Shown here one piece after another: positions 1,144-60,937 of a stretch of 64,000 nt of DNA. The DNA is from Patescibacteria group bacterium (GTDB lineage Bacteria; Patescibacteriota; Gracilibacteria; JAHISY01), in NCBI GenBank assembly GCA_043812055.1, contig JBDRMN010000058.1, forward strand, positions 184-64,183, given 5' to 3'. The position numbers were made by a program, and so were the translations under genes. Numbering within the stretch: position 1 is the stretch's first letter; every line of letters begins with the position of its first letter. A model generated the notes under the pieces. The model did not search any database. It was given only the letters and a program-made list of their open reading frames with translations, and was not told the origin of the DNA.

Positions 1144-1233
1144 ACTTCTACCTGTTTAGCAGCAGTTTAGGAATATGAACTTTTATTCATGTAAGTTTTC
1201 GGGTTTTGGCTGATGCGTCTAGAATTGTCAGCT

Positions 1234-1536
1234 ATGTTTGTAGAAAAAATCTACTACGTTTATATTCTGGCCAGTAAAAAGAACGGCACTCTTTATGTCG
1301 GCGTTACAAACGATTTAGGATCAAGAGTTCGAGAACACAGACAAGGAGAAGGTAGTAAGTTTGCCAAGAAGTACAAAGTGAACAAGCTAGTCTACTTCGA
1401 AGATCACGGAGATGTGACTGAAGCAATTGCCCGAGAGAAACAAATTAAGAAGTGGGAACGAAAATGGAAACTGGAGCTAATCGAAAAGAACAATCCCGAA
1501 TGGCAGGATTTGTATTTCAAAGTTTACGAAGGGTAG
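1234..1536 (+). CDS. Small GIY-YIG (URI-domain) nuclease, COG2827/YhbQ-like
   Basis: 100 aa from the internal ATG: MFVEKIYYVYILASKKNGTLYVGVTNDLGSRVREH... with GIY..YVG..R..H/E motifs. 84/100 identical to the copy at 24214-24516. Confidence 0.85.
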   Translation: MFVEKIYYVYILASKKNGTLYVGVTNDLGSRVREHRQGEGSKFAKKYKVNKLVYFEDHGDVTEAIAREKQIKKWERKWKLELIEKNNPEWQDLYFKVYEG

Positions 1537-1643: not shown

Positions 1644-3275
1644 CTACATTTTCTTCGGCGCCCCCACCCCCACCAAATCTTCCAACACTATTCGCAAAAC
1701 TTCTTTGGTAACAGCAGTCAGCCGCAAACGGGCGGCAGTCAATTTTTCGTTATTATTATCAATCACCCGACAGTTTTCATAAAATTTATGGAAGAGTTCA
1801 GCGAGTTCGCGCGCGTAAGTCGTGAGCGTATGAATCGCGTAGCTTTCCGAAATTTCTGCCACCAAATCCGGCAGCTCGCTCATCTTTTTGATGAGATCCA
1901 GCTCCTCCGGTTTTTCGATTAATTTGAGATCACTTTTTTTGTAATCAATTTTGCCGGCCTTCGCGAGAATTGAAGCGAGCCGGGTGTGAGCATACTGCAC
2001 GTAGTAAACCGGATTATCATTGCTCTGTTTCTTCGCTAGCTCCAGATCAAAATTCAGATGCGTATTCCAATCACGCATTACAAAAAACCAGCGCGCCGCA
2101 TCAGCTCCAACTTCATCAATCAGATCGTCCATCAGCTCGAAATCCCCCGCCCGCTTACTCATCCGCACTTCTTTGCCTTCGCGAAAGAGTTTGACGAGCT
2201 GGGTAATGATTACCTCCACTTCCCCGAAACCCAGCATTTTCACCCCCGCCTTGAGCCGCGAAATGTAGCCGTGGTGATCCGCCCCCCAGATGTCGATCAG
2301 CTTCGTGAAACCCCGTTCGAATTTATCCTTGTGATACATCAGATCCGGCAAGAGGTAGGTTGCGGTCCCATCACTTTTTACAATCACCCGATCTTTATCA
2401 TCGCCATCTGCACTCGTCTTGAGAAAAAGCGCGCCGTCTTTCTTGTAAGTCAGTTTTTTCTTTTTGAGAAAATCCAAAGTCGCCTCAATCCCCCCGCCTT
2501 CCCGCAAGGTACTCTCGTGAAACCACTCGTCAAACTTGATTTCCATTTTTTTGACCGAGGGTTTGATTTCCTCTTCTAAGAGAATGTCCGCAAAGGCCTT
2601 TCCTGTTTCTCTCGCATCATCCGAAATCTTGTCAGCGTACTTCTTCGCCAGCTTATCTATATATTCCCCCTGATAAAATTCTTCCCCGTCACGTCGTTCG
2701 TGAACGACGTGGCCTGCGGCAGCCTGAATACTCGTTCCTAAAATCTCAACCTGCTTACCAGAGTCATTCAGATAAAACTCCCGCGCCACATCATAACCGG
2801 CTCGCGTAAGCACCCTCGCTAACACATCTCCCCCAAACCCGCCTCGCCCATTTGCAATCGTGAGCGGCCCTGTGGGATTGGCAGAAATAAACTCAAGTAA
2901 AACCTTCTCTTTTCCCTGTCCTGAGCGAGTCCGCCGCGGCGGACGAGTCGAAGTGGCGAACTTTTTGCCCTGCTTCTCAATCTCCGCGAGCACAGCTTGG
3001 AAAATTTCTGGTTTCAGAAAGATATTGATAAAGCCCGGACCGGCAATTTCGGCCTTTTTTATAAACTGCTGGTCGAGCTTCCCGACTATTTCCTCGGCCA
3101 GCTCCCGCGGGTTTTTCTTGAGCTTTTTTGCTAAAATGAGCGCTGCGTTACAGGCAAGATCGCCAAACTTTTTTTCGGGTGGCGTTTCGAGCGTGAAATC
3201 ACACTTTTCAGGATTGCCTTGAGTGTCACAAGGGAGGGCAGCCTGGACGATCTTGGTAACTCGTGCGATTAGCAT
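1644..3275 (-). CDS. argS: Arginyl-tRNA synthetase
   Basis: 543 aa. Shows SANPTGPL at the HIGH region, ADHHGY, RMSKRAGD at the KMSK position, and C-terminal YVQYAHTR (DALR anticodon-binding) signatures. Confidence 0.9.
   Translation of the reverse strand: MLIARVTKIVQAALPCDTQGNPEKCDFTLETPPEKKFGDLACNAALILAKKLKKNPRELAEEIVGKLDQQFIKKAEIAGPGFINIFLKPEIFQAVLAEIEKQGKKFATSTRPPRRTRSGQGKEKVLLEFISANPTGPLTIANGRGGFGGDVLARVLTRAGYDVAREFYLNDSGKQVEILGTSIQAAAGHVVHERRDGEEFYQGEYIDKLAKKYADKISDDARETGKAFADILLEEEIKPSVKKMEIKFDEWFHESTLREGGGIEATLDFLKKKKLTYKKDGALFLKTSADGDDKDRVIVKSDGTATYLLPDLMYHKDKFERGFTKLIDIWGADHHGYISRLKAGVKMLGFGEVEVIITQLVKLFREGKEVRMSKRAGDFELMDDLIDEVGADAARWFFVMRDWNTHLNFDLELAKKQSNDNPVYYVQYAHTRLASILAKAGKIDYKKSDLKLIEKPEELDLIKKMSELPDLVAEISESYAIHTLTTYARELAELFHKFYENCRVIDNNNEKLTAARLRLTAVTKEVLRIVLEDLVGVGAPKKM
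2915..2958. repeat. GC-rich palindromic unit inside the argS coding sequence
   Basis: CCTGTCCTGAGCGAGTCCGCCGCGGCGGACGAGTCGAAGTGGCG. The core GTCCGCCG/CGGCGGAC is a perfect 16-nt palindrome. It encodes ...TSTRPPRRTRSGQGK... on the minus strand. Confidence 0.7.
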
Positions 3276-8362: not shown

Positions 8363-8365
8363 GCA

Positions 8366-8480
8366 GTTACCAGTTGCCAGTTGCCAGTGACTAGTAACTA
8401 TTTTCGCCATAATCCTAATATCTCCCAACATCTCTTAACATCTCCTAATCTCTCCCAGCCCAAAGACCCAAAGACTCGTA
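8366..8480. repeat. Intergenic degenerate word array (GTTACCAGTTGCCAGTTGCCAG...; ...CATCTCTTAACATCTCCTAATCTCTCC...; CCCAAAGACCCAAAGAC)
   Basis: Read directly. The same GTTACCAGTTGC word recurs at 54965-54993. Confidence 0.85.
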
Positions 8481-11395: not shown

Positions 11396-11443
11396 TTGCT
11401 TGCCCGCCGTAGCTCGAGTGAAACGAAAAGTGAAGGTGGGGGA
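11396..11443 (+). repeat. GC hairpin unit, type B (TTGCCCGCC-GTAG...GAAG-GTGGGGGA)
   Basis: TTGCTTGCCCGCCGTAGCTCGAGTGAAACGAAAAGTGAAGGTGGGGGA. A C-rich arm and a G-rich arm with GTAG/GAAG shoulders. Confidence 0.75.
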
Positions 11444-11811: not shown

Positions 11812-11975
11812 GCAGAATATAGGATTAAGGATATAGAATTAAGGATTAAGAGCCCCTCTTCGCCAAGACTACGAAGATCAAGCCAGGAACCTAAAGACGA
11901 AATAACGAAGTAACGAGGTAACGGAACCAAGAACCAAGAACTGGGAACCAGAGACCACACTAGGTAACCAAATAA
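11812..11975. repeat. Composite intergenic element: GGATTAAG heptamer words, a reverse-oriented type-B hairpin (11853-11881), then AACGAAG/AACCAAG heptamer words
   Basis: Read directly. The same layout occurs at 34725-34925. Confidence 0.8.
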
Positions 11976-12806: not shown

Positions 12807-12846
12807 AAAAAAATCCTTACAAGCTTTAGCAACCTTACACCCTTTA

Positions 12847-13125
12847 TTAACCTTCTTTGAGGATACGAATCAGCTTGAGAGGATCAGTTGCCCCAGAAAT
12901 AATTTCCACATTCTCCTTAGCTACTTCAAATTCTTCCGCCAGGAAGCTCTTTAATTCTTTGTTGGCTCGGCCTTTCTCCGGAACTGCCGCCACCCGAATC
13001 TTCAAAGTCTCTTCATCGAGAAATCCGACAATCGCATTCCCCGCTGAGCGTGGAATTACCTTCACGCGCAAAGTGAGCCTGCCTGTCTTTTCGAATTCGG
13101 CAAAAAGATCATTGAGTGTTTTCAT
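12847..13125 (-). CDS. DUF167 (YggU-like) protein
   Basis: MKTLNDLF...LRVKVIPRSAGNAIVG...LKIRVAAVPEKGRANKELKSFL. Start set at the internal ATG; the longer ORF would read through upstream repeats. Confidence 0.7.
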   Translation of the reverse strand: MKTLNDLFAEFEKTGRLTLRVKVIPRSAGNAIVGFLDEETLKIRVAAVPEKGRANKELKSFLAEEFEVAKENVEIISGATDPLKLIRILKEG

Positions 13126-21255: not shown

Positions 21256-22032
21256 TCAAACCTCTCTAACGAGCACCCCTTTTTTAGCAAGAAAACTTTT
21301 AATCAATCCAATAGAAGTCTCCTTGAAGTGAAAGATGCTCGCCGCCAACGCCGCCTCTGCGCCCGTCTTCTCAAAAACCTCGACAAAATCCTCCGCCTTC
21401 CCCGCTCCACCACTCGCAATCACCGGAACATTCACCGCTTCGGCAACTGCCTGCGTCAAAGCAATGTCGAAGCCATTCTTCATCCCGTCCGTATCCATCG
21501 ACGTCAGGAGAATTTCCCCGGCACCAAGTTCAACGCCTTTTTTCGCCCACTCCACCGCATCCATCCCGGTCTCCTTCCTTCCTCCGTAAGTCACCACCTC
21601 CCAATTGTTCCCTGTTCCCTGTTCCCTGTTCCCTGTTTTGGCATCAATCGCTAGCACTAAGTTCTGACTTCCAATCGCCCCGGCAATCTCTTTGATCAGT
21701 TCGGGCTTCTCAACAGCGGCAGTATTCACCGAAACCTTATCCGCTCCCGCCTGCAAAATCTTTTTCGCATCCGCAACGGAGCGAATCCCACCGCCGACTG
21801 TAAGGGGAATGAAAACTTGCTTGGCAACTGCTTCAACCATCTCGTAAACGGTTTCCCGCGAATCACTGGAAGCAGTGATGTCGAGAAAACAAAGTTCATC
21901 TGCTCCCTCCGCATCATAGAACTTCGCCAGCTCTACCGGATCACCCGCATCACGAATATTCACAAACTTCTCGCCTTTCACGACACGACCAGCGTCGACA
22001 TCGAGACACGGGATAATTCTCTTAGTTAGCAT
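21256..22032 (-). CDS. hisF: Imidazole glycerol phosphate synthase cyclase subunit
   Basis: [30 protein letters not shown] and [12 protein letters not shown]. Start at the ATG preceded by TGCTAAAAT. Confidence 0.92.
21607..21637. repeat. (GTTCCCT)x4 heptamer tandem repeat inside hisF
   Basis: GTTCCCT at 21607, 21614, 21621 and 21628, plus a partial copy. Encodes [10 protein letters not shown] on the minus strand. Confidence 0.9.
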
Positions 22033-22056
22033 AGGCGACAATTTTAGCATTTTAAC

Positions 22057-22071: not shown

Positions 22072-23760
22072 ATGGGTTTGAAAAATCTACGCCAGAAAAT
22101 CGATACACTCGACACGGAGCTACTGAAATTGCTCGCTCAGCGGCAAGAAGTAGCGGCGGAAATCGCTGCGGCCAAGAAGGCCTCGGGGAAGAAAGTATTC
22201 GATCCGAAACGGGAAAGACAATTGCTCAAGGAAAAGAAAAAGTTGGCCGAGAGTCTGGGCCTGCCCGTTGCCTACGTGGACAAAATCTTCCAAGTGCTCT
22301 TCCAAAGTTCCCGGGGAGCGCAAACGAGCTACTTCGAATTGGCCGAAAAGCTGAAGCCGCGAAAACTGAGTTATCGTAAAAAAAAAATTAAAACAGGTCT
22401 CAGTCTCCTCGAAATCTTCGCGAGACTAAAGCAAAACTTCGAAACTTGCTTCCTGCTCGAGTCTCTCGGTGAATACGACGACTTCTCCCGCAAAAGTTAC
22501 CTAGGCTTCTCTCCCTACTCCATCATCCAGGCCGAACCGGGAAAATTAATTGTTGATCAGAAAAAATTCGCAACACCGAATCCCTACGAAGCACTCAAAC
22601 TTTTTCTTCCCCGCTTTCCCAAAGGCCCGGGTTTCCGGGGCGGGCTGTTTGGTTACCTGAGTTACGAAGCTACGCGTTACTTCGAGCCCAGTCTGAACTT
22701 CGGGAAGCATCCAGCTTTCCCCGACTTCGAGTTCGGGCTCTACTACGATGGTTTGATCTTCGATAAGAAAACTAAAGAGCTAACTTATTTCTATCTAAGC
22801 AAAGACCGCAGCAAGCTGCTCCAGAAGGTTCTCCGGCAACCACTGAAGAAAGAAAAAGCATTTAAGGCCAAGGCCGCCGGCAATAACCACAGCCAGGCCT
22901 ACTTCGAGAAGGCTGTTCGCGAGGGTAAAAAGGAAATCTTCGCGGGGAACACTTTTCAGTTCGTCATCGGCCGCAAGTATTTCTATAAGCTCTCCGGTGA
23001 CCGTCTAAAATTCTACGAGAAACTCCGCGAGGTGAATCCCAGTCCGCACATGTTCTACCTGCAGTTTGGAAAGAAACTTGCCAAACGACCTGTCCCCCGT
23101 AGTCTTGACGAAGGGGGAAGCTCGCAGAGCGCAGTTCGGGAGCTGATCGGCAGTTCCCCTGAGCTAATTGTCAGAGTCGAGAACGGAGTCGTGGAAAACT
23201 ATCCCCTTGCCGGCACACGGAAAATCACCGGAGATCGTAAAAAAGATCAGCAGCTCGCGAAAGAGTTGCTAGCGGATGAGAAAGAAAAAGCTGAACACAT
23301 GATGCTCGTAGACCTCGGAAGAAATGATGTGGGTAGAGTTTGTAAATTCGGTAGCGTAAAAGTCAGCAAACTCATGGTGATTAAGAAGTTTTCTCACGTC
23401 CAGCACATCGCCAGTGAAATCATCGGCAAGTTACGGAACGACAAAACCGCTTTCGACGCGCTGGCCGCCCAGATGCCGATGGGCACCGTTTCAGGCGCTC
23501 CGAAGATCGAAACAATGAAGATTATCAAACGGCTTGAGCGCGACCCACGGGGTCCCTACGCTGGCGCGGTCGGCTTCTTTAGTCTCGCCGGGGATTGTGT
23601 TTTCGCCGTGAATCTGCGCAGCCTCTTCGCGGCCAACGGCAAAGCGACCATCCAGGCGGGCGCCGGAGTAGTCGCCGATTCGGTTCCGCGGAATGAATTT
23701 AAGGAGGTGGAAAAAAAGGTTCGCGGGGTTATAACCGCACTTAAACAAGCTAGCCACTAG
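22072..23760 (+). CDS. Fusion of AroQ-type chorismate mutase domain with a TrpE/PabB-type chorismate-binding enzyme
   Basis: The N-terminus [30 protein letters not shown]...KRERQLL is AroQ-type chorismate mutase. The C-terminus carries [41 protein letters not shown] and GPYAGAVG. Confidence 0.8.
23091..23118 (+). repeat. Type-B hairpin unit in frame inside the TrpE-like gene
   Basis: TGTCCCCC-GTAG-TCTTGA-CGAA-GGGGGA, translated as [10 protein letters not shown]. Confidence 0.8.
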
Positions 23761-24130: not shown

Positions 24131-24644
24131 TGTCATCCCGGCCGATCCCGAGCCTGTCGAGGGAGAGAGCCGGGACCCAGACAAAATTTCCGCGCAAGCG
24201 GAAATCCAAACAATCAACCCTCGTAAAACTTAAAATACAAATCCTTCCATTCGGGGTTATTCTTTTCTATTAATTCTAGTTTCCACTTTCGCCTCCACTT
24301 CTTAATTTGTTTCTCTCGGGCAATTGCCTCAACTATATCTCCGTGTTCTTCGTAATAAACAAGCTTATTTATCTTATATTTCTTCGCAAATTTACTACCC
24401 TTTCCTTCCCTGTGTTCTCGAACTCTCAAGCCTGGATCATTGGTAACACCAATGTAAAGGGTGCCATTCTTCCTGCTCGCCAAGATATAGACGTAATAGA
24501 TTTTTTCTGTCCACATAGCTGGTAATTCTAAATGTATTAACTAAAACTCAAAAACTTACATGAACTAAAGTTCATGTTTCTGGACCCCTGCTTTCGCAGG
24601 GGATAATCTGGTTTCCCGCTTTCGCGGGAATGACAATGTTTTTA
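24131..24644. mobile_element. Candidate GIY-YIG cassette copy 2 (gene inverted relative to copy 1)
   Basis: Left units at 24131-24182 and 24186-24210. Right units at 24580-24602 and 24608-24635. 24613-24644 is identical to 1575-1606. Confidence 0.55.
24214..24516 (-). CDS. Small GIY-YIG (URI-domain) nuclease, second copy
   Basis: MWTEKIYYVYILASRKNGTLYIGVTNDPGLRVREH...; 84/100 identical to the protein at 1234-1536. Confidence 0.85.
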   Translation of the reverse strand: MWTEKIYYVYILASRKNGTLYIGVTNDPGLRVREHREGKGSKFAKKYKINKLVYYEEHGDIVEAIAREKQIKKWRRKWKLELIEKNNPEWKDLYFKFYEG

Positions 24645-24715
24645 GTTTTTTATTCAAATTATTTTTACCGTGAAAGTATGACAATTTCCCGCGTTACTTC
24701 TAAACTCATCAAAGT

Positions 24716-26434: not shown

Positions 26435-26587
26435 TTTTCAATTTTCAATTTCTAAACGATTTTTAATTAACCAATTTCTAAATTTTTAAACCCCAAACTA
26501 GTCATCTTGAGATGATCTTTAGTTTGAAAATTAGAATATTGAAACATTGGAAATCGTTTAGAAATTAGAAATTAGAAATTGAAAATT
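26433..26587. repeat. About 155-nt imperfect palindrome built from AATTTCT/AGAAATT words
   Basis: The arm AATTTTCAATTTTCAATTTCTAAACGATTT (26433-26462) pairs with AAATCGTTTAGAAATTAGAAATTAGAAATTGAAAATT (26551-26587). An inner hairpin lies at 26495-26526. Confidence 0.85.
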
Positions 26588-26591
26588 AACC

Positions 26592-27661: not shown

Positions 27662-27690
27662 GTAGGAACGCCCCGGCGGGGCGTTCCTAC
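27662..27690. terminator. Perfect 13-bp stem, 3-nt loop hairpin between convergent genes
   Basis: GTAGGAACGCCCC-GGC-GGGGCGTTCCTAC. There is no clean U-tract on either side, so a terminator role is inferred only from its position. Confidence 0.5.
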
Positions 27691-29597: not shown

Positions 29598-29638
29598 TTT
29601 GTCCGCCGTAGTTCCGAACACGCAGAACGAAGGTGGGA
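29598..29638 (+). repeat. Type-B hairpin unit
   Basis: TTTGTCCGCCGTAGTTCCGAACACGCAGAACGAAGGTGGGA. Shares the exact 15-mer TTGTCCGCCGTAGTT with 50359-50373 inside dnaX. Confidence 0.85.
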
Positions 29639-29647
29639 TGATTGGAT

Positions 29648-29675
29648 GTAGAAACGTTGCGCGCAACGTTTCTAC
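29648..29675. repeat. Perfect 28-nt palindrome
   Basis: GTAGAAACGTTGCG/CGCAACGTTTCTAC. Confidence 0.9.
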
Positions 29676-32911: not shown

Positions 32912-34330
32912 TTGGATTGTAAAAATCTCTGGATTTCGATTCTCCGCCGTCTGGAACCGACCATTGCTCGGGCTAAATTTTTGACTTGGTTTCAAAACAC
33001 CACCATCCTCGACATCGCGGGAGAGACACTCGTGGTCGGTGCTCCGACTACTTTCGCCCGTGACTGGATTGCCAACAAATACGCTCTCAAAATTCTCCAA
33101 GCCGCCGAAGAGGAAAATCCTCAGATCAAAGAAGTTGAGTTCGCAGTCGATGCCGCACTCGGTGACGGCATCGACCCTCGCACGATTGATATCAAGGCTG
33201 TCTTTGCCAAGCCCGGAGACAAAAAAATCTACAAAGTTCGCGGTCGCGAGGAAGTTTTCGTCACCAATTCTGGGATCCTCTCCGCCAAGCTCAACCCACG
33301 CTACACGCTGGCCAACTTCGTACCTGGTGAAGAAAACCGCCTCGCTCACGCCGCAGCACTTTCTGTTTCCCGGACTCCCGGGATGACTTACAATCCCCTC
33401 GTGATTTACGGCGGAGTGGGGCTGGGCAAGACCCACCTCCTCTCCGCAATCGGACACGAGGTCCTCGCCAACAACCCCAACAAGGTTATCGCACTCACGA
33501 CTGCCGAGATTTTTACCCGTGAGTTTGTCGCTGCTGCCAAGGCATTGCGGGCAGATGAATTCAAAAAGAAGTATCGCGACATCGATGTTTTCCTCTTCGA
33601 CGACGTCCAATTTCTCGAAAACCGAGATAAGACTCAGGCTGAACTCTTCAATATCTTCAACGAGCTGCACAATAGCGGCAAACAAATCGTCCTCAGCTCT
33701 GACCGCCCTCCCAGTGAGCTGACCGAAATCATGGACCGTCTGCGTAACCGCCTTACCTGGGGTCTGGTTGCCGAGATCGAGCAGCCCAGCTTCCAGTCCC
33801 GTTTGGAAATTCTCAAAAACAAAACTCAGGAGCGTCGGGTAATCCTCGATCCCGAGCTTCTGGAATTTATCGCGATGAATGTCACTGAATCCGTACGCGA
33901 GCTCGAAAGCGCTCTCCATTGGTCCATCGCCCAAACCGAGCTCCTCCACACTCAACCAACCATCCGTGAGCTGGGCCGCATGCTTGGGAAAATCAATAAA
34001 AAGGAACGCATACTTGGTCTCCCTGAGTCCGCTACGGAGGTTTCAGTCAGGACTCCTGCTGAATTGGTTGAGCTTGTTTCTAAATACTTTCAATTGCCCG
34101 TAGCGGAAATCTGTGGAGCCTCCCGCAAAAAAGAATTCCGCACCGCCCGTCAGATCGTCATGTATCTTTCCCGCGAAGTGCTCGGTTGTGGCTTGGCCGA
34201 AATCGCCCAGAACTTCGACCGCGATCACAGCACCGTCCTGCATTCCTGCCGTCGCATCACTGCCGCGCTCCAAAAAGACGAGGCTCTCGTCCGGCATGTG
34301 AATGCGGTCAAGAAAGAGATGGGACTGTAA
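32912..34330 (+). CDS. dnaA: Chromosomal replication initiator DnaA
   Basis: NPLVIYGGVGLGKTHLL, FLFDDVQFL and a C-terminal DNA-binding domain (RQIVMYLSRE...DHSTVLH). TTG start. Confidence 0.93.
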   Translation: MDCKNLWISILRRLEPTIARAKFLTWFQNTTILDIAGETLVVGAPTTFARDWIANKYALKILQAAEEENPQIKEVEFAVDAALGDGIDPRTIDIKAVFAKPGDKKIYKVRGREEVFVTNSGILSAKLNPRYTLANFVPGEENRLAHAAALSVSRTPGMTYNPLVIYGGVGLGKTHLLSAIGHEVLANNPNKVIALTTAEIFTREFVAAAKALRADEFKKKYRDIDVFLFDDVQFLENRDKTQAELFNIFNELHNSGKQIVLSSDRPPSELTEIMDRLRNRLTWGLVAEIEQPSFQSRLEILKNKTQERRVILDPELLEFIAMNVTESVRELESALHWSIAQTELLHTQPTIRELGRMLGKINKKERILGLPESATEVSVRTPAELVELVSKYFQLPVAEICGASRKKEFRTARQIVMYLSREVLGCGLAEIAQNFDRDHSTVLHSCRRITAALQKDEALVRHVNAVKKEMGL

Positions 34331-34594: not shown

Positions 34595-34724
34595 TAGGAT
34601 AAATCATTGTTTTTTCTCCTGCATCCGTTTAAAATCCTCCGGCTATTTAGCTAGGGGTTGTTTCCCTTAAGCACTTGAAGGCTAGTCCCTAGAACCTGGT
34701 AGGAATAGTAGAACAAGAGAATAA

Positions 34725-34925
34725 TAGGATTAAGGATACAGGATTAAGAATTAAGAACCCTTCATTGTCGACGCTCCTCAGAGCAAGTAGCTCAGTTCCG
34801 GCGAAAACGAGATAACGATTCGCCAACTAACCAATTAACTAAATAACCAAGTAACCGAACATCCGAACCAGGAACTTAAAGACCAAATCCTAACCACTAA
34901 CTACTAATTACTAACTACTCCCTAC
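34725..34925. repeat. Composite intergenic word element, homologous in layout to 11812-11975
   Basis: GGATTAAGGATACAGGATTAAGAATTAAG (34727-34755), then a hairpin-like segment (34764-34810), then TAACCAA/TAACTAA words. Confidence 0.8.
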
Positions 34926-34938
34926 CCCCTTACCCTAA

Positions 34939-40647: not shown

Positions 40648-40795
40648 TGTTACGAATTTTAAATTATAAGTTTTAATTTCCTTATAATCCTTAAGGCTCC
40701 TTACTAACGTTACTAACCTTATAAACCTTATCAACCTTACTAACCTTCCAACCGGACGCGCAGTTTAAACGAAAAGTCCTTTTTTGGGAAGAAAC

Positions 40796-41091: not shown

Positions 41092-43929
41092 ATGGCCTCC
41101 CCTATCGAAACTCTCAACCGAAGACGTCAAGAGCTAGCCAAGAAGCTCGAGTTTTTGGAGAATGATCCGGATAGCAAACAGTTGAAAGAAAAATTAAAAA
41201 TCGAAGCAAGGCTGAGCCGTCTTGATGGAAAAATCGAAACTGTGCGTAAATCCCGCCAAGCAAGTGCTGAACTACTCCAGGAAATTAATAAAGAGATTGA
41301 AGCACTCGAAGCGCAGATCGAGACTCCCGAATTTGTGCAGAAATTTGCAGTAAGCGAAAAAATCATCATGCATCTCCTGGAGAACCCGAAAGCTAAACTG
41401 GAAAACCTGAAGCCAGCCGACTTCACTGAAAACCCCGCATTACAAGAAGTGACTGCTTGGAAAAATATCTTAGAGGATGCTAAGAAAGGACTTCCCTATG
41501 CTCAAGTTTTAACCGCAAAAGAATTTGACTGGAAAAATCCAAAAGATTCCATTGATAAGATCATGAAAAAGGGTACTAAAGTTGGTAAAGAGATTATCGA
41601 CCAAATCCAAAAGCATCCCTACATTGCAGCTGGCTGTCTAATCGCCGGAGCTTACGCTCTATACCAATTTTTCAAAAAGGACAGCAAGCTTTGGGACAAA
41701 GCTAAGGGAGCGATTGCGGGAGGAATAGCGATATGGCTAGGGTTGTCCGCTGCCGGCAGCAATATGCCCCAAAAAATTGCCGAGCGTGGAGCGAGAGCAC
41801 TGTTTGGAGATGATCTTGTTGATAAGTTTTTTGGAATAAAAAAGGATGTTTCTGAAAAGACGAAGAATGCCGCTGAAACAGTCAAGGCAGGAGCCGAGAA
41901 AACTTTGGAAGGTTTGGGGAAACGTGCTCCTGAGACAGTCAAATCAATCAAAAAACTCTGGAAAGATTTTGAGATAGATAATGTCTCCGGGTCTAAAGAG
42001 AACCTTGCGGAGCTACTCAAAAACATCAAAGCTGAGGGTGGTCAGGCAGTTCTGGAAATTACGAAAGATGGCTCTTTTAAGTTGCTTTTCCTTGGCCTCA
42101 AGGGCGCCAAAGAGGCTTACTGTTTTAGCTACAAGATCACCCAAAAAATGGTTCATCGGCTTGGCGAAATGCTTGCAGATCCTGACAAGCCTTGGTGGAC
42201 AGATCCCGCAACAATTATCAAAATCGATTCTTACATCGCAGGAGTCGGAGGGGCTTATGGTTTCACCAAAGCGCTTTTTACTACCGACATAGAGTTCAAG
42301 CATCCCCTCAAAACAATTAGAAGGGTGGTCGGCAATACTACCGTCGAAACTTTCAAAGGGGCCACCTGGGGTCAAGTCAAAGCCGGCCACCGTATTTTTC
42401 AAACGATCCATTATCGCAAGGAAATTATGAATTTTTATAAGTCTCAAATTAAATTAGGCAAAATTACAGTTACCGAAAATTTGGGAAAGAGGCAAGTAAG
42501 ATGGTTTGCTGAACACCTCACCGACAGGGCCAATAGGCATAGTCACGAATACCAAAAAGGTATTTACCACGCGAGGAGAGCGGCTTTTTGGGACCAAATG
42601 TCAAATGAGGTCTGGATGAGTAAAGGAGAATCAGAACATTTTTCTGACAAAGCTAAGACCGAAGCAAGAGAGGCAAGAAGGTACATGCAGAGACTCGATA
42701 AGCGTTTTGAACACGCTTCCGAGAGCGAAATTATCAAAGAGGGCGCAAAAATAAATGAGGACATGAAAAAAACTCCGAAACCCAAACCAGCTAAAGCCGC
42801 AAATCCTAAACCACAAAAACCCAAAACAGGGTCCTCTCCTGAGCCTAACGCAAACGTAATAGATCTCGAGAAGATAAAAAGGCAAAAAGTGGGTCTGGGG
42901 CCCGGGCCAGAGCTCAGAACAACTGAACAAAAAGTTCCCGAGCTAGCCCCAATGGCAAAACCACACCTCAGAGTTGTTGAAAAACCAAAGCCAGCTCCAG
43001 AGATTCTTTCCGAAGCCGAAATCAGGCAATACGCGGACTGGTGTGAGCAAAAAGGCGTGAAGCCGATTGCTAAAAAAATTCTCCGAGAGAGGTTAGCGAC
43101 TTTCGGGACAGAGGCTCTCAAACTGGGTGCCACCCCCTTAATGATTTTCCTGACTATTCACAACATCGAGTCCGCACCGCCCAGCCAACGCAATGAAGCA
43201 ATCGCAGAAAACGGTGCTGCACTCACTGCTTTCTATATCGCTCTCAAGGCTGGATCTGCTACCTTCAAGGCCGCCCCAGGACCATTCCTACACAAAACAG
43301 TTGGAGCAATCTCTATCGCCATGCTGTCTTTTTTCATCGGAGAGAAGGGGGTCGAGAAAATTTCCAATGCTATTCTCAAAAAACTAAATCTCGATTTTTC
43401 CGAAGGCGGCATTGTGGATAATGTCCTTTTATCAAGTGAGATCATTTTTGGATTCGGTGGTTTGTTTGGACTTCTCAAAAACAAACTTCACACGGGAGAA
43501 AATGCTCGCGAATTCCTGGAAAGAAATATGCCCAGCATATCTTTGAGTAAGGGGATTTCCCGTTTTCGTTACAACAGCGTGAACGGTTGGAATAAACGTA
43601 TTCAAAAAAAGATTTTTGCTTCTCGATTAGGGGTTGAGAAAAATTTCTTAAAAACACTTCTGATCAATGAAGACTGGCGAAAAATAGAAGCTGCCAAACT
43701 GGCAGATTTGGAATTTCGAAAAGAACTAGCCAAGGGTAAAACAAAAGAGCAGCTTGAACAGGCAATTGCTGAACACAAAAAGTTCCTGGGAGGCATCGGC
43801 CAATTCAATAAGAAAGACTTTTCCAACAAAGAGTTCATTCAAGCAGGTGTTTTGAGGTTGCTCGAACAGCAAACCTTAGCCCTGGAAAGAAAGAAACGGA
43901 AAAAAACAACAGCACGAAGAAGCCGATAG
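41092..43929 (+). CDS. Large (945 aa) coiled-coil and polytopic membrane protein, unknown function
   Basis: An N-terminal coiled coil, hydrophobic helix pairs (around aa 185-225 and 700-800), a central Pro/Lys-rich linker (KPKPAKAANPKPQKPK) and a basic C-terminus. No domain recognised. Confidence 0.65.
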   Translation: MASPIETLNRRRQELAKKLEFLENDPDSKQLKEKLKIEARLSRLDGKIETVRKSRQASAELLQEINKEIEALEAQIETPEFVQKFAVSEKIIMHLLENPKAKLENLKPADFTENPALQEVTAWKNILEDAKKGLPYAQVLTAKEFDWKNPKDSIDKIMKKGTKVGKEIIDQIQKHPYIAAGCLIAGAYALYQFFKKDSKLWDKAKGAIAGGIAIWLGLSAAGSNMPQKIAERGARALFGDDLVDKFFGIKKDVSEKTKNAAETVKAGAEKTLEGLGKRAPETVKSIKKLWKDFEIDNVSGSKENLAELLKNIKAEGGQAVLEITKDGSFKLLFLGLKGAKEAYCFSYKITQKMVHRLGEMLADPDKPWWTDPATIIKIDSYIAGVGGAYGFTKALFTTDIEFKHPLKTIRRVVGNTTVETFKGATWGQVKAGHRIFQTIHYRKEIMNFYKSQIKLGKITVTENLGKRQVRWFAEHLTDRANRHSHEYQKGIYHARRAAFWDQMSNEVWMSKGESEHFSDKAKTEAREARRYMQRLDKRFEHASESEIIKEGAKINEDMKKTPKPKPAKAANPKPQKPKTGSSPEPNANVIDLEKIKRQKVGLGPGPELRTTEQKVPELAPMAKPHLRVVEKPKPAPEILSEAEIRQYADWCEQKGVKPIAKKILRERLATFGTEALKLGATPLMIFLTIHNIESAPPSQRNEAIAENGAALTAFYIALKAGSATFKAAPGPFLHKTVGAISIAMLSFFIGEKGVEKISNAILKKLNLDFSEGGIVDNVLLSSEIIFGFGGLFGLLKNKLHTGENAREFLERNMPSISLSKGISRFRYNSVNGWNKRIQKKIFASRLGVEKNFLKTLLINEDWRKIEAAKLADLEFRKELAKGKTKEQLEQAIAEHKKFLGGIGQFNKKDFSNKEFIQAGVLRLLEQQTLALERKKRKKTTARRSR

Positions 43930-49919: not shown

Positions 49920-51506
49920 TTACCATCCCTCCTCAAAAAGTTCTTCGGCGGTTTCGACCAGACTCTTTTTCGCCAGTGCCGGACTGCTGGCTGCCGGATC
50001 CGGTGCACTTGATTTTAGTCCGATTTCTGCTCGTTCGACGTCTACCTGGACCGACGTTCCCAATAGTTCTGAAAAAATCTCAGCCAGCCCCGCTCGGGCT
50101 TCTTTACTTTCGAGCTTACCCATCAAAAAATCCGAACCAACCCCTAGCACCACTTTGTCATCTTCGGTACGCAAAACGATACACTCTTTCAAAGCTAGTT
50201 TGATCGCCGACTTCTTGACCTTGGTAATCACCTCAGGCAACGCCGCCTTGGCCGCCTCCAGGCTCAGCCCTTTGGGGGCTTTAACTTCTTTAGCTGGCTG
50301 CGTTTTTGATTTAGCAGGGCTCTTCTTTTCTGAGGTCTCACTCTTTTTACTAGCACCCTTGTCCGCCGTAGTTTCGCCTTGCGGAGCGGAGGCGGATGAA
50401 ACCTGCTTGCCCTGAGCTTGCCGAAGGGTTCCCTGCTTGCCCGCCGAAGCCTTGGCGAAGGCGGGGAACCTGGAACCTGTCACGTCGCTCGCGAGCGACG
50501 TGACCTGAATTACAGCCATCTCCAGCGGCAACTGTGGAATAATCGCATTCTTCAGTTCCTCCCCTGTCCGAGTAAAAACCTCGACAATGGTGAGAACTTC
50601 TTTGGCTTCCGCCAGGCAGTTTTCAGCCACCTTCTCGAGCATGATCTCTCGCAAACGCATCAGGAGATTTTTATTGAATTGAATCAGATTTACCCCCTCG
50701 GCGACCAAACCGTTGATCGTCTCGAGAGCTTCGGGAAGTTTCTGAAAGAGCAGGGCAAAGACAAAATCCTCCACCGCCTGTGGACGGGTCAGCCCGAGAT
50801 TTTGGGCAACTGCCGCTGTGTTAATTTCTCCGGTCTGCCCGAACTGTTCGAGCATCCCCACAGCATCCCGCATGCCTCCGGCCGACTGCTTAGCAATTAG
50901 CTCCAAAGCTTCGGGCTCAGCCTTGATCCCCTCTTTTTCCGCAATCTCCGCCAGGTGTTTGGTGATCTTGGCATTCTCAATCCGGTGAAAATCAAAACGC
51001 TGGGTGCGAGAGAGAACCGTCTCGGGAACTTTGTGAGGTTCGGTGGTAGCAAGGATAAAGTAAGCGTGTCCCGGTGGTTCTTCCAGAGTTTTCAGCAAAG
51101 CGTTGAAGGCTTCCTTGGTCAGCATGTGCGCTTCATCAATCACGTAAACTTTGACCCGCGCCCGCGAAGGGGTGAATTGAATCTTTTCTTTAAGCTCGCG
51201 AATTTCATCGATACCCCGATTGCTCGCTGCATCGATTTCGATCAAATCAACTAAGCGACCATTCAGGGCGTCCACGCAAATCTCACACTCGTTGCAAGGC
51301 TCACCATCCTCGTCTGGATTGAGACAGTTGAGCGAACGGGCGATTATCCGAGCCAGGGAAGTCTTGCCTGTTCCGCGGGTTCCCGCGAAGAGGTAAGCAT
51401 GCGTGAGCCCCTTGTTTTTGAGAGCATTACGAAAAGTCTGTTTGACATGATCTTGCCCTACAATTTCGGCTAATTTCTGCGGTCGGTATTTGCGGTAGAA
51501 ACTCAA
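49920..51506 (-). CDS. dnaX: DNA polymerase III gamma/tau subunit
   Basis: YRPQKLAEIVGQDHV, GTRGTGKTS, a Zn module CxxC...CNECEIC, and VIDEAHML. TTG start. Confidence 0.92.
   Translation of the reverse strand: MSFYRKYRPQKLAEIVGQDHVKQTFRNALKNKGLTHAYLFAGTRGTGKTSLARIIARSLNCLNPDEDGEPCNECEICVDALNGRLVDLIEIDAASNRGIDEIRELKEKIQFTPSRARVKVYVIDEAHMLTKEAFNALLKTLEEPPGHAYFILATTEPHKVPETVLSRTQRFDFHRIENAKITKHLAEIAEKEGIKAEPEALELIAKQSAGGMRDAVGMLEQFGQTGEINTAAVAQNLGLTRPQAVEDFVFALLFQKLPEALETINGLVAEGVNLIQFNKNLLMRLREIMLEKVAENCLAEAKEVLTIVEVFTRTGEELKNAIIPQLPLEMAVIQVTSLASDVTGSRFPAFAKASAGKQGTLRQAQGKQVSSASAPQGETTADKGASKKSETSEKKSPAKSKTQPAKEVKAPKGLSLEAAKAALPEVITKVKKSAIKLALKECIVLRTEDDKVVLGVGSDFLMGKLESKEARAGLAEIFSELLGTSVQVDVERAEIGLKSSAPDPAASSPALAKKSLVETAEELFEEGW
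50358..50504. repeat. Cluster of four GC hairpin units in frame within dnaX
   Basis: Units at 50358-50400 and 50406-50433, a near-palindrome at 50433-50473 (CCCGCCGAAGCCTTGGCGAAGGCGGG) and a perfect 26-nt palindrome at 50479-50504 (GTCACGTCGCTCG/CGAGCGACGTGAC). Confidence 0.85.
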
Positions 51507-53776: not shown

Positions 53777-53903
53777 CCCGCCACAACCCCGGGGTTACAG
53801 ATCCCGAAAAACAGCCTTTTAACGCCCTTAACTTTATACTTTTCACTTTTGAATTTAGGCTTTCCGCTTTATACTTTTCACTTTCAACTTTATACTTTCA
53901 CTT

Positions 53904-55204: not shown

Positions 55205-58033
55205 TTATTCACTTTTGTTCTTAAAACCCTTGGTCTGCGCTTCTCGCTGGGCGAGCACTTCCTCAGGGTTGGTAGTGACAATTTGATTTTCCGAATAGCT
55301 CGCAATTACCTGAATCGCCACGTGCTTGTTGTCCGCGAAGAAAAGTCCCTGCCCCATTCCGGAATTCAGCAACATGTATTTCTCTCCGTCAGTGAGGTTG
55401 AAGGTTTTTTGCAGAACATCCATCGAGCTCGGCGCCTGTTTGAGCAGCAGTTGCATCGAGGAGTTGGTCACGATCGGACGACCGTAAGAGCTACCGAGGA
55501 AGTCCTCCACGTCTTGCGTGATTGCCGTAATCCCAAGGTAATACTTGCGAGCCCGCTTTACCAGACCAAAAAGGAATTTGGCAGCATCCTCGTGCTGCAT
55601 CAAAATCCAGGCCTCGTCGACCACGAGCAGGCGTTTCTTCATTTCGCTGCGGACCCGATTCCAGATGTAGTTCAGAATGATGAACATTGCGGTTGGTCGC
55701 AATTCGTCTTCGAGATCACGGATGCAGAAGACCACGACTCCCGAATTCAGATCCACGTTTGTTTCCTTGTTAAAAATTCCCCCAAAAGTTCCGCTCGTGT
55801 ATTTCTGCAAACGTTGGGCAAGATCTTCCGCCCCTTTCGTCGAGCTGAGTACCGAGTGGAAGTCTTCCATCGTCGGCATCGCGACTGAGTTGGGATCCTC
55901 TACTTTCATCGTAATTCCCTTGACCGCGTAAGTATCGATCAAGGCTTTATCGATCAGCGCTTCTTCAGTTGAAGTCATCTTCCCGAGCATCAGCTTCATC
56001 AGGGCAGTGAGGGTAATGACGTTCTCGCGCAAGAGGTCTCCTGGTTTGAGATCATCACCCTCGAAAGGTTTGGGCAAGTCGAAAGGATTGATACGCTGAT
56101 TTGAGTTGAGGGAGACTTGCAAATAGGTTCCGCCCATGGTTTCACAAAGCGCTTCATATTCGTTCTCCGGATCGATCACAATCATGTCCGTGCCAAACAT
56201 CGCTTGGCGTAAAATCTCGAGCTTCACTGCATACGACTTTCCTGCTCCCGAACTCGCAAACACACAGGAATTGGCATTCGGCAAAGCAAAACGGTCAAAG
56301 ATGATGAGTGAATTATTGTGACGATTGAGCCCGTAGAGAATTCCTTCATCCGTTGCCAGTGTCGAGCTCACGAACGGGAAGGTCGTCGAAAGTGGTGAGG
56401 TATTCATATTGCGGTGCACCTCCAGCTCATCCACGCAGATTGGCAGAGTGGAATTAAACGCATGCTCACCCTGGATGTCAGCCCGTTTCGTGAGGACAAG
56501 CTTCCCACCCAGCTGATTCTCGAGCATCTTGGTCGTTGCTTCGAGCTTTTTGAGATCGTCCGCGTAAACCGTGAAATAAAAACCAAACTGGAAGAACTTC
56601 TCCTGACCACGCTGGAGATCAGTCCGTAGTTGTTCCGCGTCCTCAAGTGCAGTCTCGAGCACCGGATCACGCACATTCCCCTTTTCGCGCTGCATGGTGA
56701 TAGAGCTCTGGATCTGCGCTACTTTCTTTTTCAGTATGTGCATAATTTCATCCGAGGAAATCGGATAGATAAATTGCGCCATGTCAACCGTCGCGTCGAA
56801 ATTAATCACCGGACTAAGCCAGTTGGTCTCGAGGAAACGCGGATAGGCGTAAACAAAGAAGCTCCGCATGTAGACACCCGAGAGATTGAGATGATCGTAG
56901 TGAATCTCGAGTGAACTCGGTGAAATCAGGTCCTTCACGCTAGCCAGACCTTGCTGATAAATTCGTTCCGCTTCCACAAACTTTTTCTGTTCAGGGTTCT
57001 TGGTGACTGACTGGCCTGGAGTCGGATAGACAGTTTGCTTAGCCTTTTCGAAGATTTTTCTCAAAAAAGAACCAGTCGCTTTTTGGTTGTGATTGAGATA
57101 CTGCTCAGTAGCAGTTTGGTCTCCGGTCACTTGTGGCTTTCCGGGATTGGCCGGTACTGGTTTCGCAGACACAGCTTTGGTGGCTGCGAAAGTTGGCAGT
57201 TCCTTCGCGCCTGGATTGGCAGCTGAGATTTGTCTGATCGAGACCGCCTGCTTGGACTGAGTAGTTGTGGCAGTGACAGGAGACCCGCTTCGTGGGGCCC
57301 CTTTTGCGGCAACTGCTTGCTGTTTCCGCACTGCGATTGCCGGGCTCTGGGCCGCCAGTTTCGACACAGGCTGCGCATTGCTGGCTGCCTCAATTTCAGC
57401 TGCGGTTTTATTGCGAATGGTTTTTGTGACTACTTTGGCTGCTGTTTGCTTGGGCACCTGAGCCACTTCGGTAACTTCGTTAGGAAGCGGTTTGAAAACT
57501 GTTCCGATTGGGGTCGTTTTTATCTGTTTCTGTTTGCTGGCTGCCTCAATTTCTGCCACAGTTTTGGTCTTAATTACAGTTGCATCTGCAGATTTTAAAT
57601 TCGCTGCAGCCTGTTTTTGGGGAACTGGCGAAAAGCCCTGCTTAGGAGCAGAGACAGCTGCCGGGCTCTGGGCTGCCAGTTTCGACGCAGACTGCGCATT
57701 GCTGGCTGCCTCAATTTCAGCCGTGGTTTTATTGCGAATGGTTTTTGTGACTGCTGCTGCTTGCTTGGGCACCTGAGCCACCTTGGCAACTTCGTTGGGA
57801 AGCGGCTTGAAAGTTACTTCAACTGTGGCCGTTCTTGTCTGCTTCTGTTTGCTCGCTGCCTCGATTTCCGCCGCAGTTTTAACCTTGATTGCGTTTGCGT
57901 TTACAGATTTCACACTTGCTGCAGTCTGTTTTTGAGGAACTGGCGAAGAGCCCTGCTTGGAAGCAGGTACAACTGCCGGAGATGCAGACTGGGCAGTATT
58001 GCGCGGATCGGTCACGGGAGAGTTTTCCGCCAT
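55205..58033 (-). CDS. virB4: VirB4/TrbE-family type IV secretion ATPase with a repetitive N-terminal extension
   Basis: Walker A region CVFASSGAGKSYAV, Walker B LLVVDEAW and ITQDVEDF. The first ~320 aa are Ala/Lys/Gln-rich repeats. Confidence 0.8.
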   Translation of the reverse strand: MAENSPVTDPRNTAQSASPAVVPASKQGSSPVPQKQTAASVKSVNANAIKVKTAAEIEAASKQKQTRTATVEVTFKPLPNEVAKVAQVPKQAAAVTKTIRNKTTAEIEAASNAQSASKLAAQSPAAVSAPKQGFSPVPQKQAAANLKSADATVIKTKTVAEIEAASKQKQIKTTPIGTVFKPLPNEVTEVAQVPKQTAAKVVTKTIRNKTAAEIEAASNAQPVSKLAAQSPAIAVRKQQAVAAKGAPRSGSPVTATTTQSKQAVSIRQISAANPGAKELPTFAATKAVSAKPVPANPGKPQVTGDQTATEQYLNHNQKATGSFLRKIFEKAKQTVYPTPGQSVTKNPEQKKFVEAERIYQQGLASVKDLISPSSLEIHYDHLNLSGVYMRSFFVYAYPRFLETNWLSPVINFDATVDMAQFIYPISSDEIMHILKKKVAQIQSSITMQREKGNVRDPVLETALEDAEQLRTDLQRGQEKFFQFGFYFTVYADDLKKLEATTKMLENQLGGKLVLTKRADIQGEHAFNSTLPICVDELEVHRNMNTSPLSTTFPFVSSTLATDEGILYGLNRHNNSLIIFDRFALPNANSCVFASSGAGKSYAVKLEILRQAMFGTDMIVIDPENEYEALCETMGGTYLQVSLNSNQRINPFDLPKPFEGDDLKPGDLLRENVITLTALMKLMLGKMTSTEEALIDKALIDTYAVKGITMKVEDPNSVAMPTMEDFHSVLSSTKGAEDLAQRLQKYTSGTFGGIFNKETNVDLNSGVVVFCIRDLEDELRPTAMFIILNYIWNRVRSEMKKRLLVVDEAWILMQHEDAAKFLFGLVKRARKYYLGITAITQDVEDFLGSSYGRPIVTNSSMQLLLKQAPSSMDVLQKTFNLTDGEKYMLLNSGMGQGLFFADNKHVAIQVIASYSENQIVTTNPEEVLAQREAQTKGFKNKSE
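57329..57994 (-). repeat. Tandem coding repeat, about 2.1 copies of about 318 bp (105-107 aa)
   Basis: Residues 14-112 and 113-219 align (KQG.SPVPQKQ...KT.AEIEAASKQKQ...FKPLPNEV..VAQVPKQ...TKTIRNKT.AEIEAASNAQ). Confidence 0.85.
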
Positions 58034-59044: not shown

Positions 59045-59229
59045 CGATTTCAATTTCCAATTTCTAAACAATTTCCAATTTACCAATTTATTAATTTTCC
59101 AAACTCGCCTATTTAAAAATAAATCTACATCTATAGCTGGTTTAAAAAATTAAAGCATTGAAATATTAAAAATTGTTTTAAAACTTAAAACTTAAAATTT
59201 AAAATTACATCGCCTTAAGTAAATAAGTC

Positions 59230-60737: not shown

Positions 60738-60937
60738 ATTTCATTGCCAAAATCAAATCTGTAAACCTATGTGAACAATTCTTTAAATCATTGAAAATTA
60801 AAACATTTCCGCCAGAGGCGGATGAGCCTATGGCTCAAAAAATTATTTACTTGTCCTCCGTAGCCCGGAGGGCGAAGGATGGAGAAATTAGAAATTTAAA
60901 ATTAGAAATTCCAACCAAGCATTATTTCAAAAACTGA
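60734..60937 (+). CDS. Doubtful 67-codon ORF spanning repeat filler between the membrane-protein gene and porB
   Basis: It has start/stop overlaps on both sides (ATGA, TGATG). However, its sequence consists of hairpin units (60808-60822, 60824-60836, 60851-60884) and AGAAATT words. Confidence 0.2.
   Translation: MNFIAKIKSVNLCEQFFKSLKIKTFPPEADEPMAQKIIYLSSVARRAKDGEIRNLKLEIPTKHYFKN
60851..60884 (+). repeat. Type-B hairpin unit
   Basis: TTGTCCTCCGTAGCCCGGAGGGCGAAGGATGGAG. Confidence 0.75.

Follow-up and report, generated by a model that had tools for sequence, protein, structure and literature searches.

How does a conserved replication gene come to carry, within its reading frame, the same kind of short hairpin-forming DNA that lies between genes? 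The question is raised by dnaX, which occupies positions 49920-51506 on the minus strand of a 64,000-nucleotide stretch of a Patescibacteria genome (contig JBDRMN010000058.1; this whole stretch is referred to below as the window) and encodes a DNA polymerase III tau-like subunit of 528 amino acids. A sequence-only reading of this DNA had proposed that some 150 bp of the gene form a cluster of four hairpin repeats, and that the linker of the tau subunit is built from repeats that also populate the spacers. The answer we favor, at a probability of roughly 80%, is passive colonization of a permissive tau linker by short mobile palindromes, with selection acting only on reading frame and stop codons. 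[quoted passage not shown]

The open reading frame (ORF) at 49920-51506 is identified as DnaX by Pfam matches to DNA_pol3_delta2 (3e-44), DNAX_ATPase_lid and DNA_pol3_gamma3, the last of these corresponding to domain III, with the clamp-loader ATPase module, the lid and domain III all present. Translation confirms that the gene reads through the hairpin units after domain III: positions 50355-50504 on the minus strand encode residues 335-384, VTSLASDVTGSRFPAFAKASAGKQGTLRQAQGKQVSSASAPQGETTADKG (VTSLASDVT...ETTADKG), which begin directly after the end of domain III (..LPLEMAVIQ), and the frame is kept across the insert into a C-terminal domain that aligns with those of orthologues. Predicted tryptic peptides from the insert are FPAFAK, ASAGKQGTLR and QVSSASAPQGETTADK, with one more spanning MAVIQVTSLASDVTGSR. 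An AlphaFold model computed from the orthologue alignment is confident for domain III, whose final helix ends at residue 337, and for residues 340-412 gives pLDDT values below 50 and no secondary structure, followed by a folded C-terminal domain at 416-525; it thus predicts that residues 340-412 are a disordered linker between domain III and the tau C-terminal domain. At the DNA level the segment 50355-50504 has a GC content of 65% compared with 49% for the window, and the 150 nt from 50358 rank first among 1,277 segments of the 64 kb for GC-corrected folding energy, with the tRNA-Leu region lower. Compared with shuffled sequences, the repeat region folds with z = -3.1 as DNA and z = -2.0 as RNA of the coding strand. 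A scan of the whole window against Rfam 15 at the gathering score returned tRNA-Leu as its sole match, and the units match no described RNA family.

All four hairpin units were found where the sequence-only reading had placed them, and the 150 nt that hold them draw on three families: two units are of type B, one of type A and one of type C. Type B is defined by the pattern CTTGYCCGCCGWAG N(4-30) GRAGGYGG, in which the spacer is the loop, and type A by CCCTTCG.CAAGCTCAGGGCAAGC on the coding strand. In plus-strand order, the first type-B unit lies at 50358-50400 (+), antisense to dnaX; its sequence is CTTGTCCGCCGTAGTTTCGCCTTGCGGAGCGGAGGCGGATGAA, with arms CTTGTCCGCCGTAG..GGAGGCGGATGAA, it is recognized by a shared 15-mer and by its fit to the type-B pattern, and it encodes ..APQGETTADK. 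It is followed at 50402-50435 (+) by a type-A word in its short form, CCTGCTTGCCCTGAGCTTGCCGAAGGGTTCCCTG (CAGGGAACCCTTCGGCAAGCTCAGGGCAAGCAGG on the coding strand), which had been described as a weaker unit; it encodes GTLRQAQGKQ and is shared with the dnaX gene of a close relative (contig L001). The second type-B unit, CTTGCCCGCCGAAGCCTTGGCGAAGGCGGGGA, at 50436-50467 (+), encodes PAFAKASAGK and shares a 17-mer, with one mismatch, with a spacer unit at 11397. The near-palindrome reported here is present, at adjusted coordinates: the interval 50433-50473 is an outer imperfect stem, whereas the sequence quoted for it, CCCGCCGAAGCCTTGGCGAAGGCGGG, occupies 50440-50465 and sits within a bigger imperfect hairpin at 50427-50470. 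Two heptamers of a spacer type (GGAACCT x2, 50465-50478, +) separate this unit from the type-C palindrome at 50479-50504, which is GTCACGTCGCTCGCGAGCGACGTGAC, a perfect 26-nt palindrome with 13-nt arms that are 100% complementary and a 22-nt core at 50481-50502; it encodes VTSLASDVT. On its left stands the hexamer ACCTGT (50475-50480, +), the last two bases of which are the outer bases of the palindrome, and on its right ACCTGA (50503-50508, +); these are the two copies of a duplicated target that is discussed below. By our arithmetic, about 0.001 perfect 26-nt palindromes are expected per 64 kb of random sequence. With lengths of 26-45 nt and stems of 6-13 bp, the units match REPs both in size and as imperfect GC-rich stem-loops.

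The tie between the linker and the spacers proved sound on several counts. Copy counts within the genome refer to the 64 kb from this one assembly, which hold six type-B copies, at 11399, 23088, 29598, 50358, 50436 and 60850, three of them in spacers and three in genes. The intergenic copies are a unit at 11399-11442 (+) identified by sequence match, a unit at 29598-29640 (+) with an exact match, and a variant (TCCTCC..GGATGGA) at 60850-60885 (+) that lies in a 206-nt spacer segment missing from L001. The 15-mer TTGTCCGCCGTAGTT of the first dnaX unit recurs exactly at 29599-29613, and its recurrence is significant: with up to two mismatches it has three matches in the window compared with 0.11 expected, and none of 100 shuffles gave three. 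The weaker unit too belongs to a family found in spacers, in that a copy is present in a spacer of the relative (L001:8490-8530) and missing from the matching spacer of the window, and the GGAACCT heptamers beside the units are simple repeats of the kind seen in spacers.

Types A and C each have two copies in the window, all within genes, one of each in dnaX and one of each in argS. The in-frame copies that had been claimed for argS and for a TrpE-like gene are both there. The TrpE-like gene (22072-23760, +) contains an in-frame type-B variant at 23088-23121 (+; TCCCCC..GGGGGA, a compensatory change) that encodes an 11-residue peptide. In argS (1644-3275, -) an in-frame type-A unit at 2915-2952 (+), with a nested 16-nt palindrome GTCCGCCGCGGCGGAC, encodes the peptide STRPPRRTRSGQG and adds eight residues relative to most close ArgRS orthologues; one of these, P0124, has the form without the nested hairpin. 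An older type-C copy at 2688-2713, recognized by its similarity to that in dnaX and encoding GHVVHERRD, is identical to the dnaX copy at 25 of 29 positions including flanks, with a change in one arm matched by a complementary change in the other; it too adds residues relative to close orthologues, and other lineages carry other hairpin inserts at this site. The orthologue alignment shows that two surface sites of ArgRS carry differing hairpin-derived inserts in different lineages: a plain type-A word (TRSGQG), a type-B-like peptide (LRQGYGRQAPF), or another insert. The ArgRS proteins P0124, P0126, P0130 and P0132, from Peribacteria-like lineages, have the peptides TRSGQG, LRQGYGRQAPFTKGG, SPFDKGG and SIGSGRR at these hot spots. 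A comparison with the structure 3fnr had given a net length difference of zero, and with it the suggestion that ArgRS has no insertion; this was overturned by the alignment of close orthologues, in which both units are lineage-specific.

Comparison with relatives bears on how the linker arose. A search of a database of 5.8 billion proteins identified P0002, at 81% identity, as the closest DnaX; its contigs, L001 and L002, are about 80% identical to the window in nucleotide sequence and syntenic with it. To judge by the names that the best protein matches carry, the window is from a genome of the Peregrinibacteria/Peribacteria kind. The dnaX genes of the window and L001 align base for base outside the linker; within it, the only common pieces are CAGGGAACCCTTCG and CTCAGGGCAAGCAGG. 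The codons of the shared DNA are GGA ACC CTT CGG for the window gene and GGG AAC CCT TCG for that of the relative; the frames differ, and it is therefore conserved as DNA and not as protein. The L001 gene lacks both type-B units and the 26-nt palindrome, has more heptamers, and carries another hairpin nested in its type-A word. Another 16 orthologues, 57-66% identical, have linkers that are shorter and unrelated, with other spacer-like DNA at the junction in two of them. Neither in L001 nor in the orthologues is the segment conserved as protein. One old unit is common to the two relatives, and both have acquired new ones since their divergence. Elsewhere, too, the window and L001 differ in this way, according to a survey of every indel of 12 nt or more between them: present only in L001 are a 34-nt type-A unit in one spacer and an in-frame 21-nt palindrome, CCTGCCTGCCGGCAGGCAGGG, in a POR-like gene, and present only in the window is the 206-nt spacer segment, which contains two hairpins. 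We note that a perfect palindrome, CCTGCCTGCCGGCAGGCAGG, stands in frame (21 nt) at L001:3122-3142 in a POR/ferredoxin-like gene, that the corresponding site in the window, near 58229, is without it, and that a Verrucomicrobiota genome has the same palindrome (L069:5446-5465) as part of a type-B unit, where it forms the loop.

The type-C palindrome offers the clearest view of how a unit may have arrived. On the coding strand L001 reads AT TCAGGT TCTAGG, and the window reads AT TCAGGT CACGTCGCTCGCGAGCGACGTG ACAGGT TCCAGG; the empty site thus has a single TCAGGT, and the occupied one has TCAGGT, the palindrome and ACAGGT. By this alignment, the 26-nt palindrome is shown to have been inserted as a discrete unit, with duplication of a 6-nt target. 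Public metagenome contigs, which come without taxonomy, were scanned with the 22-nt core, two arm variants being allowed, and type C was found on at least 120 of them, with GC contents from 31 to 72%. Among the matches listed, on which the following counts are based, the two compensated arm variants are nearly equal (57 and 56 copies) and hybrids between them are rare. An exact direct repeat of at least 5 nt abuts 55 of the 115 distinct sites, compared with 1.1 expected from random 22-nt windows at the same loci and about four from re-paired flanks. The bases flanking the core are complementary at 107 of the 115 sites for the first pair (-1/+1) and at 93 for the second (-2/+2), and at only 13 for the third (-3/+3); since two flanking base pairs are complementary and the third is not, the full type-C palindrome is 26 nt, as in dnaX. 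Where the two repeat copies differ at one base adjacent to the core, the result is a complementary pair in all cases (39/39). Of the repeats, 11 are perfect; a change is confined to the right copy in 21 and to the left copy in 18, and few are changed in both. These class counts appear to agree with a 22-nt core, a duplication of 6 nt (5-7) and a later correction of the innermost base, and appear not to agree with a longer element that makes a shorter duplication.

Type C is also found in frame in PurD, a glycosyltransferase, a sulfatase and PrmC, with the peptides TSLASDV and HVARERR as in dnaX and argS. It often directly adjoins a tRNA gene (Ser, Asp, Gln, Trp, Ile, Met, Phe or Val) at its exact 3' or 5' end; the first two bases of the core then fall within the predicted tRNA end, and beyond the palindrome the final bases of the acceptor stem appear a second time. 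Loci of this type include L129, L139, L142, L144, L173, L187-L190, L199, L201, L210 and L211, and further ones are L219, L220, L231 and L245. A BLAST search of the palindrome against the PLSDB plasmids gave only imperfect matches at chance level. No clear target duplications were found around the type-A and type-B units or the 21-nt palindrome of L001; at type-B flanks, direct and inverted repeats are both above control, in part because these units stand in tandem heptamers or larger hairpins, and the signal for types A and B is weak or mixed. As a tentative proposal, which we would rate somewhat below an even chance, type C (core CACGTCGYTCGCGARCGACGTG) could be an ultra-small mobile element that consists of two abutted 11-nt arms, inserts with a duplication of about 6 bp at N-Y-N-N-R-N, often at tRNA ends, has its outermost base pairs then made complementary, and is widespread in uncultured lineages; taken with CCTGCCTGCCGGCAGGCAGG and the words of types A and B, which are nested in each other and reappear in different phyla, it might point to a widespread and unrecognised machinery that writes short hairpins into bacterial genomes, essential genes included.

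The other two families are likewise not confined to this organism. A scan for type B over one genome per species in the Genome Taxonomy Database (GTDB), in which about 30 chance matches are expected by our arithmetic for the whole collection, found at least 120 loci. Those listed come from Acidobacteriota, Verrucomicrobiota, Planctomycetota, Bacteroidota and Nitrospirota, as well as from Bradyrhizobium and several Patescibacteria lineages, and their consensus, CTTGTCCGCCGTAGC-loop-GCGAAGGCGGA, reaches beyond the search pattern. In genomes of moderate GC content, where long ORFs are informative, type B is in frame in GyrB, ThyA, RlmN, an S1-like ribosomal protein (rpsA), a DUF255 protein and a pyridine-nucleotide oxidoreductase; in this oxidoreductase, which belongs to another Patescibacteria genome (L020), the inserted unit encodes PAFAKASAGK, as in the window DnaX. 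Type-B units are often located inside other hairpins. The type-A word was seen again in unrelated metagenome loci that we retrieved, at times with nested hairpins. The 3' arm of type B, GGCGAAGGCGG (50453-50464 in the window), is the same string as a stretch of bacterial 16S rRNA that we take to be universally conserved, and this is probably a coincidence. Searches of the open-access literature for exact DNA and peptide strings returned nothing relevant, with GCGAAGGCGG retrieving only papers that print 16S rRNA sequences.

The mechanism that we envisage for dnaX is a simple one. Units would land in the disordered linker, a part of the gene that tolerates almost any sequence, and translation would turn them into additional linker residues that hardly affect function; to survive, an insertion, or several insertions jointly, would have to preserve the reading frame and bring in no stop codon. 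Insertion would proceed by a staggered cut, giving a duplication of about 6 bp, and the palindrome might then be kept perfect, or extended, by hairpin-templated correction.

Several observations weigh against this account. The type-C insertion and its duplication together add 28 nt, which is not a multiple of three, and the present frame therefore needs further indels in the dnaX linker; such frame-restoring indels are plausible given the variable numbers of heptamers. The exact window protein is present in one assembly only (P0001, with one member and one contig), and translation of the insert is presumed from the open frame. Within the 64 kb, Pfam identified no RAYT-type (REP-associated tyrosine) or other transposase among 20 window ORFs, which comprise two small GIY-YIG genes and housekeeping genes. 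All six type-B units of the window are on the plus strand, and no other structure predicted in the window is as strong as the cluster; both could hint at function instead of pure parasitism. A replication-strand cause for the bias of type B was considered, with dnaA at 32912-34330, but the GC skew does not speak for or against it, being negative throughout, with no switch and no visible sign of an origin.

One alternative is that the units serve the host, as REP-like RNA or DNA structures that act, for example, in mRNA stability, in dealing with conflicts between transcription and replication, or as a binding site for a conserved protein; conservation across phyla would then reflect function, and genic copies would be by-products or useful in themselves. 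Type B is near-identical in many phyla, with a conserved internal loop (GTA or GAA opposite GAA) between variable or compensated stems, and the G-T pairs in the stems of spacer copies (CCGCC/GGTGG at 11404 and 29603) fit a hairpin formed at the RNA level on the plus strand, the strand shared by all six window copies. Type B is also often the tip of longer hairpins with site-specific outer stems; inverted flanks of at least 6 nt are found at 11 sites, compared with 0.8 expected. However, its orientation to transcription is mixed: the copies at 11399 and 60850 and that in the TrpE-like gene are sense, and those at 29598 and in dnaX are antisense. In addition, no Rfam family matches, close relatives differ in its presence or absence at the same sites, and copies are found in arbitrary permissive loops of unrelated proteins. 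We consider a host-serving role improbable, although it fares better than the other alternatives.

A little less probable still is that the cluster acts in cis as a pause, frameshift or stop signal, giving a short gamma-like product beside full-length tau, as in Escherichia coli dnaX. The E. coli gamma protein ends in the region at the end of domain III, and it is directly after domain III that the cluster starts; the parallel extends to the same gene, a strong hairpin (the most stable predicted structure in the window) and a nearby AAAAAG run. The run lies downstream of the cluster on the coding strand (50337-50351, AGT AAA AAG AGT GAG) and contains AAAAAGAGTGA, which we take to be the slippery site of E. 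coli dnaX, with its stop in the -1 frame (K-K-E-stop). The order of elements is reversed, however: the hairpins are upstream of the run, whereas known stimulators are downstream, and the 75 nt downstream of it have no significant structure (z = -1.0). The heptamer is imperfect, being T AAA AAG and not A AAA AAG, and the 81%-identical relative (GGT TCT AGT GAG AAG AGT) and other orthologues show no conservation of either the run or the hairpins. Moreover, the same units are also present in spacers and in many unrelated genes. A programmed frameshift at AAAAAGAGTGA was accordingly rejected, on the grounds of no downstream structure, the missing first A and the absence from the relative; the run is probably there by chance.

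It is very unlikely that the segment, or at least its perfect palindrome, is an artefact of assembly or library construction in a metagenome-assembled genome. Perfect palindromes can come from chimeric reads, and the contig of the one assembly that carries the exact protein is not on record in the contig index; nevertheless, the frame is kept through the segment to the conserved C-terminal domain, palindromes with flanking duplications of the same kind occur in more than 100 independent assemblies from different projects, and a diverged copy with a compensated arm change is located in argS on the same contig. Least probable of all is an ordinary Ala/Gly/Lys-rich low-complexity linker with palindromes due to composition or chance, for although tau linkers are variable and of low complexity in all orthologues and the fold of the coding-strand RNA is modest (z = -2.0), the perfect 26-nt palindrome and the exact 15-mer common to a spacer are far beyond chance, the region holds its first rank after GC correction, the same DNA words are found in other genes, spacers and phyla, and the two relatives have the shared DNA in different frames.

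Colonization by mobile palindromes thus remains the reading that we prefer, and it can be set beside several known systems. MITEs such as Correia/NEMIS, RUP and ERIC lack coding capacity, carry inverted repeats at their ends, are accompanied by a target-site duplication, and occasionally form in-frame fusions with genes. Type C is similar in that it consists of two abutted inverted arms of 11-13 nt with a flanking duplication of about 6 bp (5-7 nt), and no parent insertion sequence (IS) was found for it in the Pfam scan of 20 window ORFs. MITEs are, however, 70-300 bp long with inverted repeats of 15-30 bp (PMC3733652), and type C, at 22-26 nt in all, is well under that size.

Closer in habit are the RPEs, which are palindromic repeats found both between genes and in frame in conserved genes (Ogata et al. 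2000, cited in PMC3733652), and which in Rickettsia conorii include a copy in the replicative polymerase gene dnaE, according to the part of PMC3733652 available to us. The window units are likewise intergenic and also in frame in genes for functional proteins, where they add residues at tolerated places; the in-frame insertion with extra residues relative to orthologues that marks RPEs is seen in dnaX, in argS and in genes of other genomes. In sequence they are not RPEs: the peptides and sequences of RPE-4 and RPE-6 (CGTC-4 and CGTC-1) differ from theirs, and RPE-1 is, in the text available, longer and confined to Rickettsia, whereas the window units are 26-45 nt long, are unrelated in sequence, and belong in two of their families to many phyla. 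Type C moreover has a target duplication, and none is reported for RPEs in that portion of PMC3733652.

REPs are GC-rich imperfect palindromes of 20-40 bp that are mostly extragenic and that form dimers and clusters, with some nested in the loops of others (PMC3733652). Intragenic REPs are often in genes for replication, repair and tRNA synthetases, with clusters that encode 43-82 residues (Di Nocera et al. 2013, PMC3733652), and GTAG- and CGTC-tagged REPs are thought to be moved by RAYT transposases (PMC3733652). The window units share with REPs the G-T pairs in stems, the sub-families set apart by complementary changes, and the nesting (PMC3733652). They differ in that the GTAG or GAAG of type B is an internal loop between stem segments and not an unpaired terminal tag, that types A and C have no terminal tag at all, and that type C is a perfect palindrome with a flanking duplication; the peptides of intragenic REPs in PMC3733652 are unlike those of the window, and neither dnaX nor a Patescibacteria genome figures there. 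Very short, mobile GC-rich hairpin elements also invade organelle genomes repeatedly, as with the repetitive hairpin-forming elements of sponge mitochondria (PMC2800124); as far as the available part of that source describes them, these are organellar and have no sequence relation to the window units, and the likeness is one of analogy only.

In-frame palindromic repeats in genes are therefore already known, and the present case is of that kind; what is distinctive here is the Patescibacteria host, the different sequence families, and the presence of four units from three families in one linker. Within the open-access text that our literature check covered, the families and the duplication signature appear to be undescribed. 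The dnaX gene is an unusually dense and recent case of selfish DNA inside a gene.

Other features of the window deserve mention. Nearly every spacer is made up of short tandem repeats with a period of 7-9 nt (GGATTAA, CAGTTGC, AACCTTA, AATTTCC and others), often in opposite orientations on the two sides of a spacer; examples are at 8363-8395, 11819-11975, 12807-12856, 26435-26591, 34720-34938, 40699-40747, 53832-53903 and 59045-59229. The same kind of repeat is found in frame in hisF (21256-22050, -), where four tandem CAGGGAA heptamers at 21606-21639 encode a 19-residue peptide. Two spacers contain long perfect palindromes, GTAGGAACGCCCCGgCGGGGCGTTCCTAC at 27662-27690 and GTAGAAACGTTGCGCGCAACGTTTCTAC at 29648-29675, which begin with GTAG and end with CTAC and around which no obvious flanking duplication was found. 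One 44-nt hairpin, in copies at 1569-1612 and 24607-24650 that are 95% identical, follows both of the small stand-alone GIY-YIG nuclease genes, at 1213-1536 (+) and 24214-24516 (-) (Pfam 8e-19 and 2e-17), and further hairpins flank these genes. On the other strand this hairpin reads TGTC ATTCCCGC GAAA GCGGGAA. CCA; with its TGTC, an 8-bp stem that starts with AT, a GAAA loop and a CCA tail, it fits the published description of CGTC-1 REPs. A DnaA-like ORF at 32912-34330 (+), so judged from its translation (..GGVGLGKTHLL..), has a hairpin with a perfect 10-bp stem at 33146-33175, in the variable N-terminal linker region. There are also two large TraG/VirD4-like P-loop genes, at 55205-58033 (-) and 41092-43929 (+), of 942 and 945 amino acids, assigned by Pfam on the L001 counterpart; the first has an internal tandem duplication of about 320 nt (57338-57979, 81-94% identity), and in place of the second L001 has a different gene of 694 amino acids.

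These findings carry a warning for annotation, in that FAKASAGK, LRQAQGK and TSLASDV in metagenomic proteins are repeat-derived and are not homologous domains. If the duplication signature of type C holds, it would be the smallest transposon-like element known to us, and the enzyme that moves it could be sought among genes that co-occur with it across genomes. The tau linker and the surface loops of ArgRS are landing pads for such DNA, and the former provides a datable example of the growth of a linker by capture of non-coding repeats. For the organism itself, the locus indicates that a small, streamlined Patescibacteria genome still carries active short palindromic DNA that reshapes essential genes of replication and translation.

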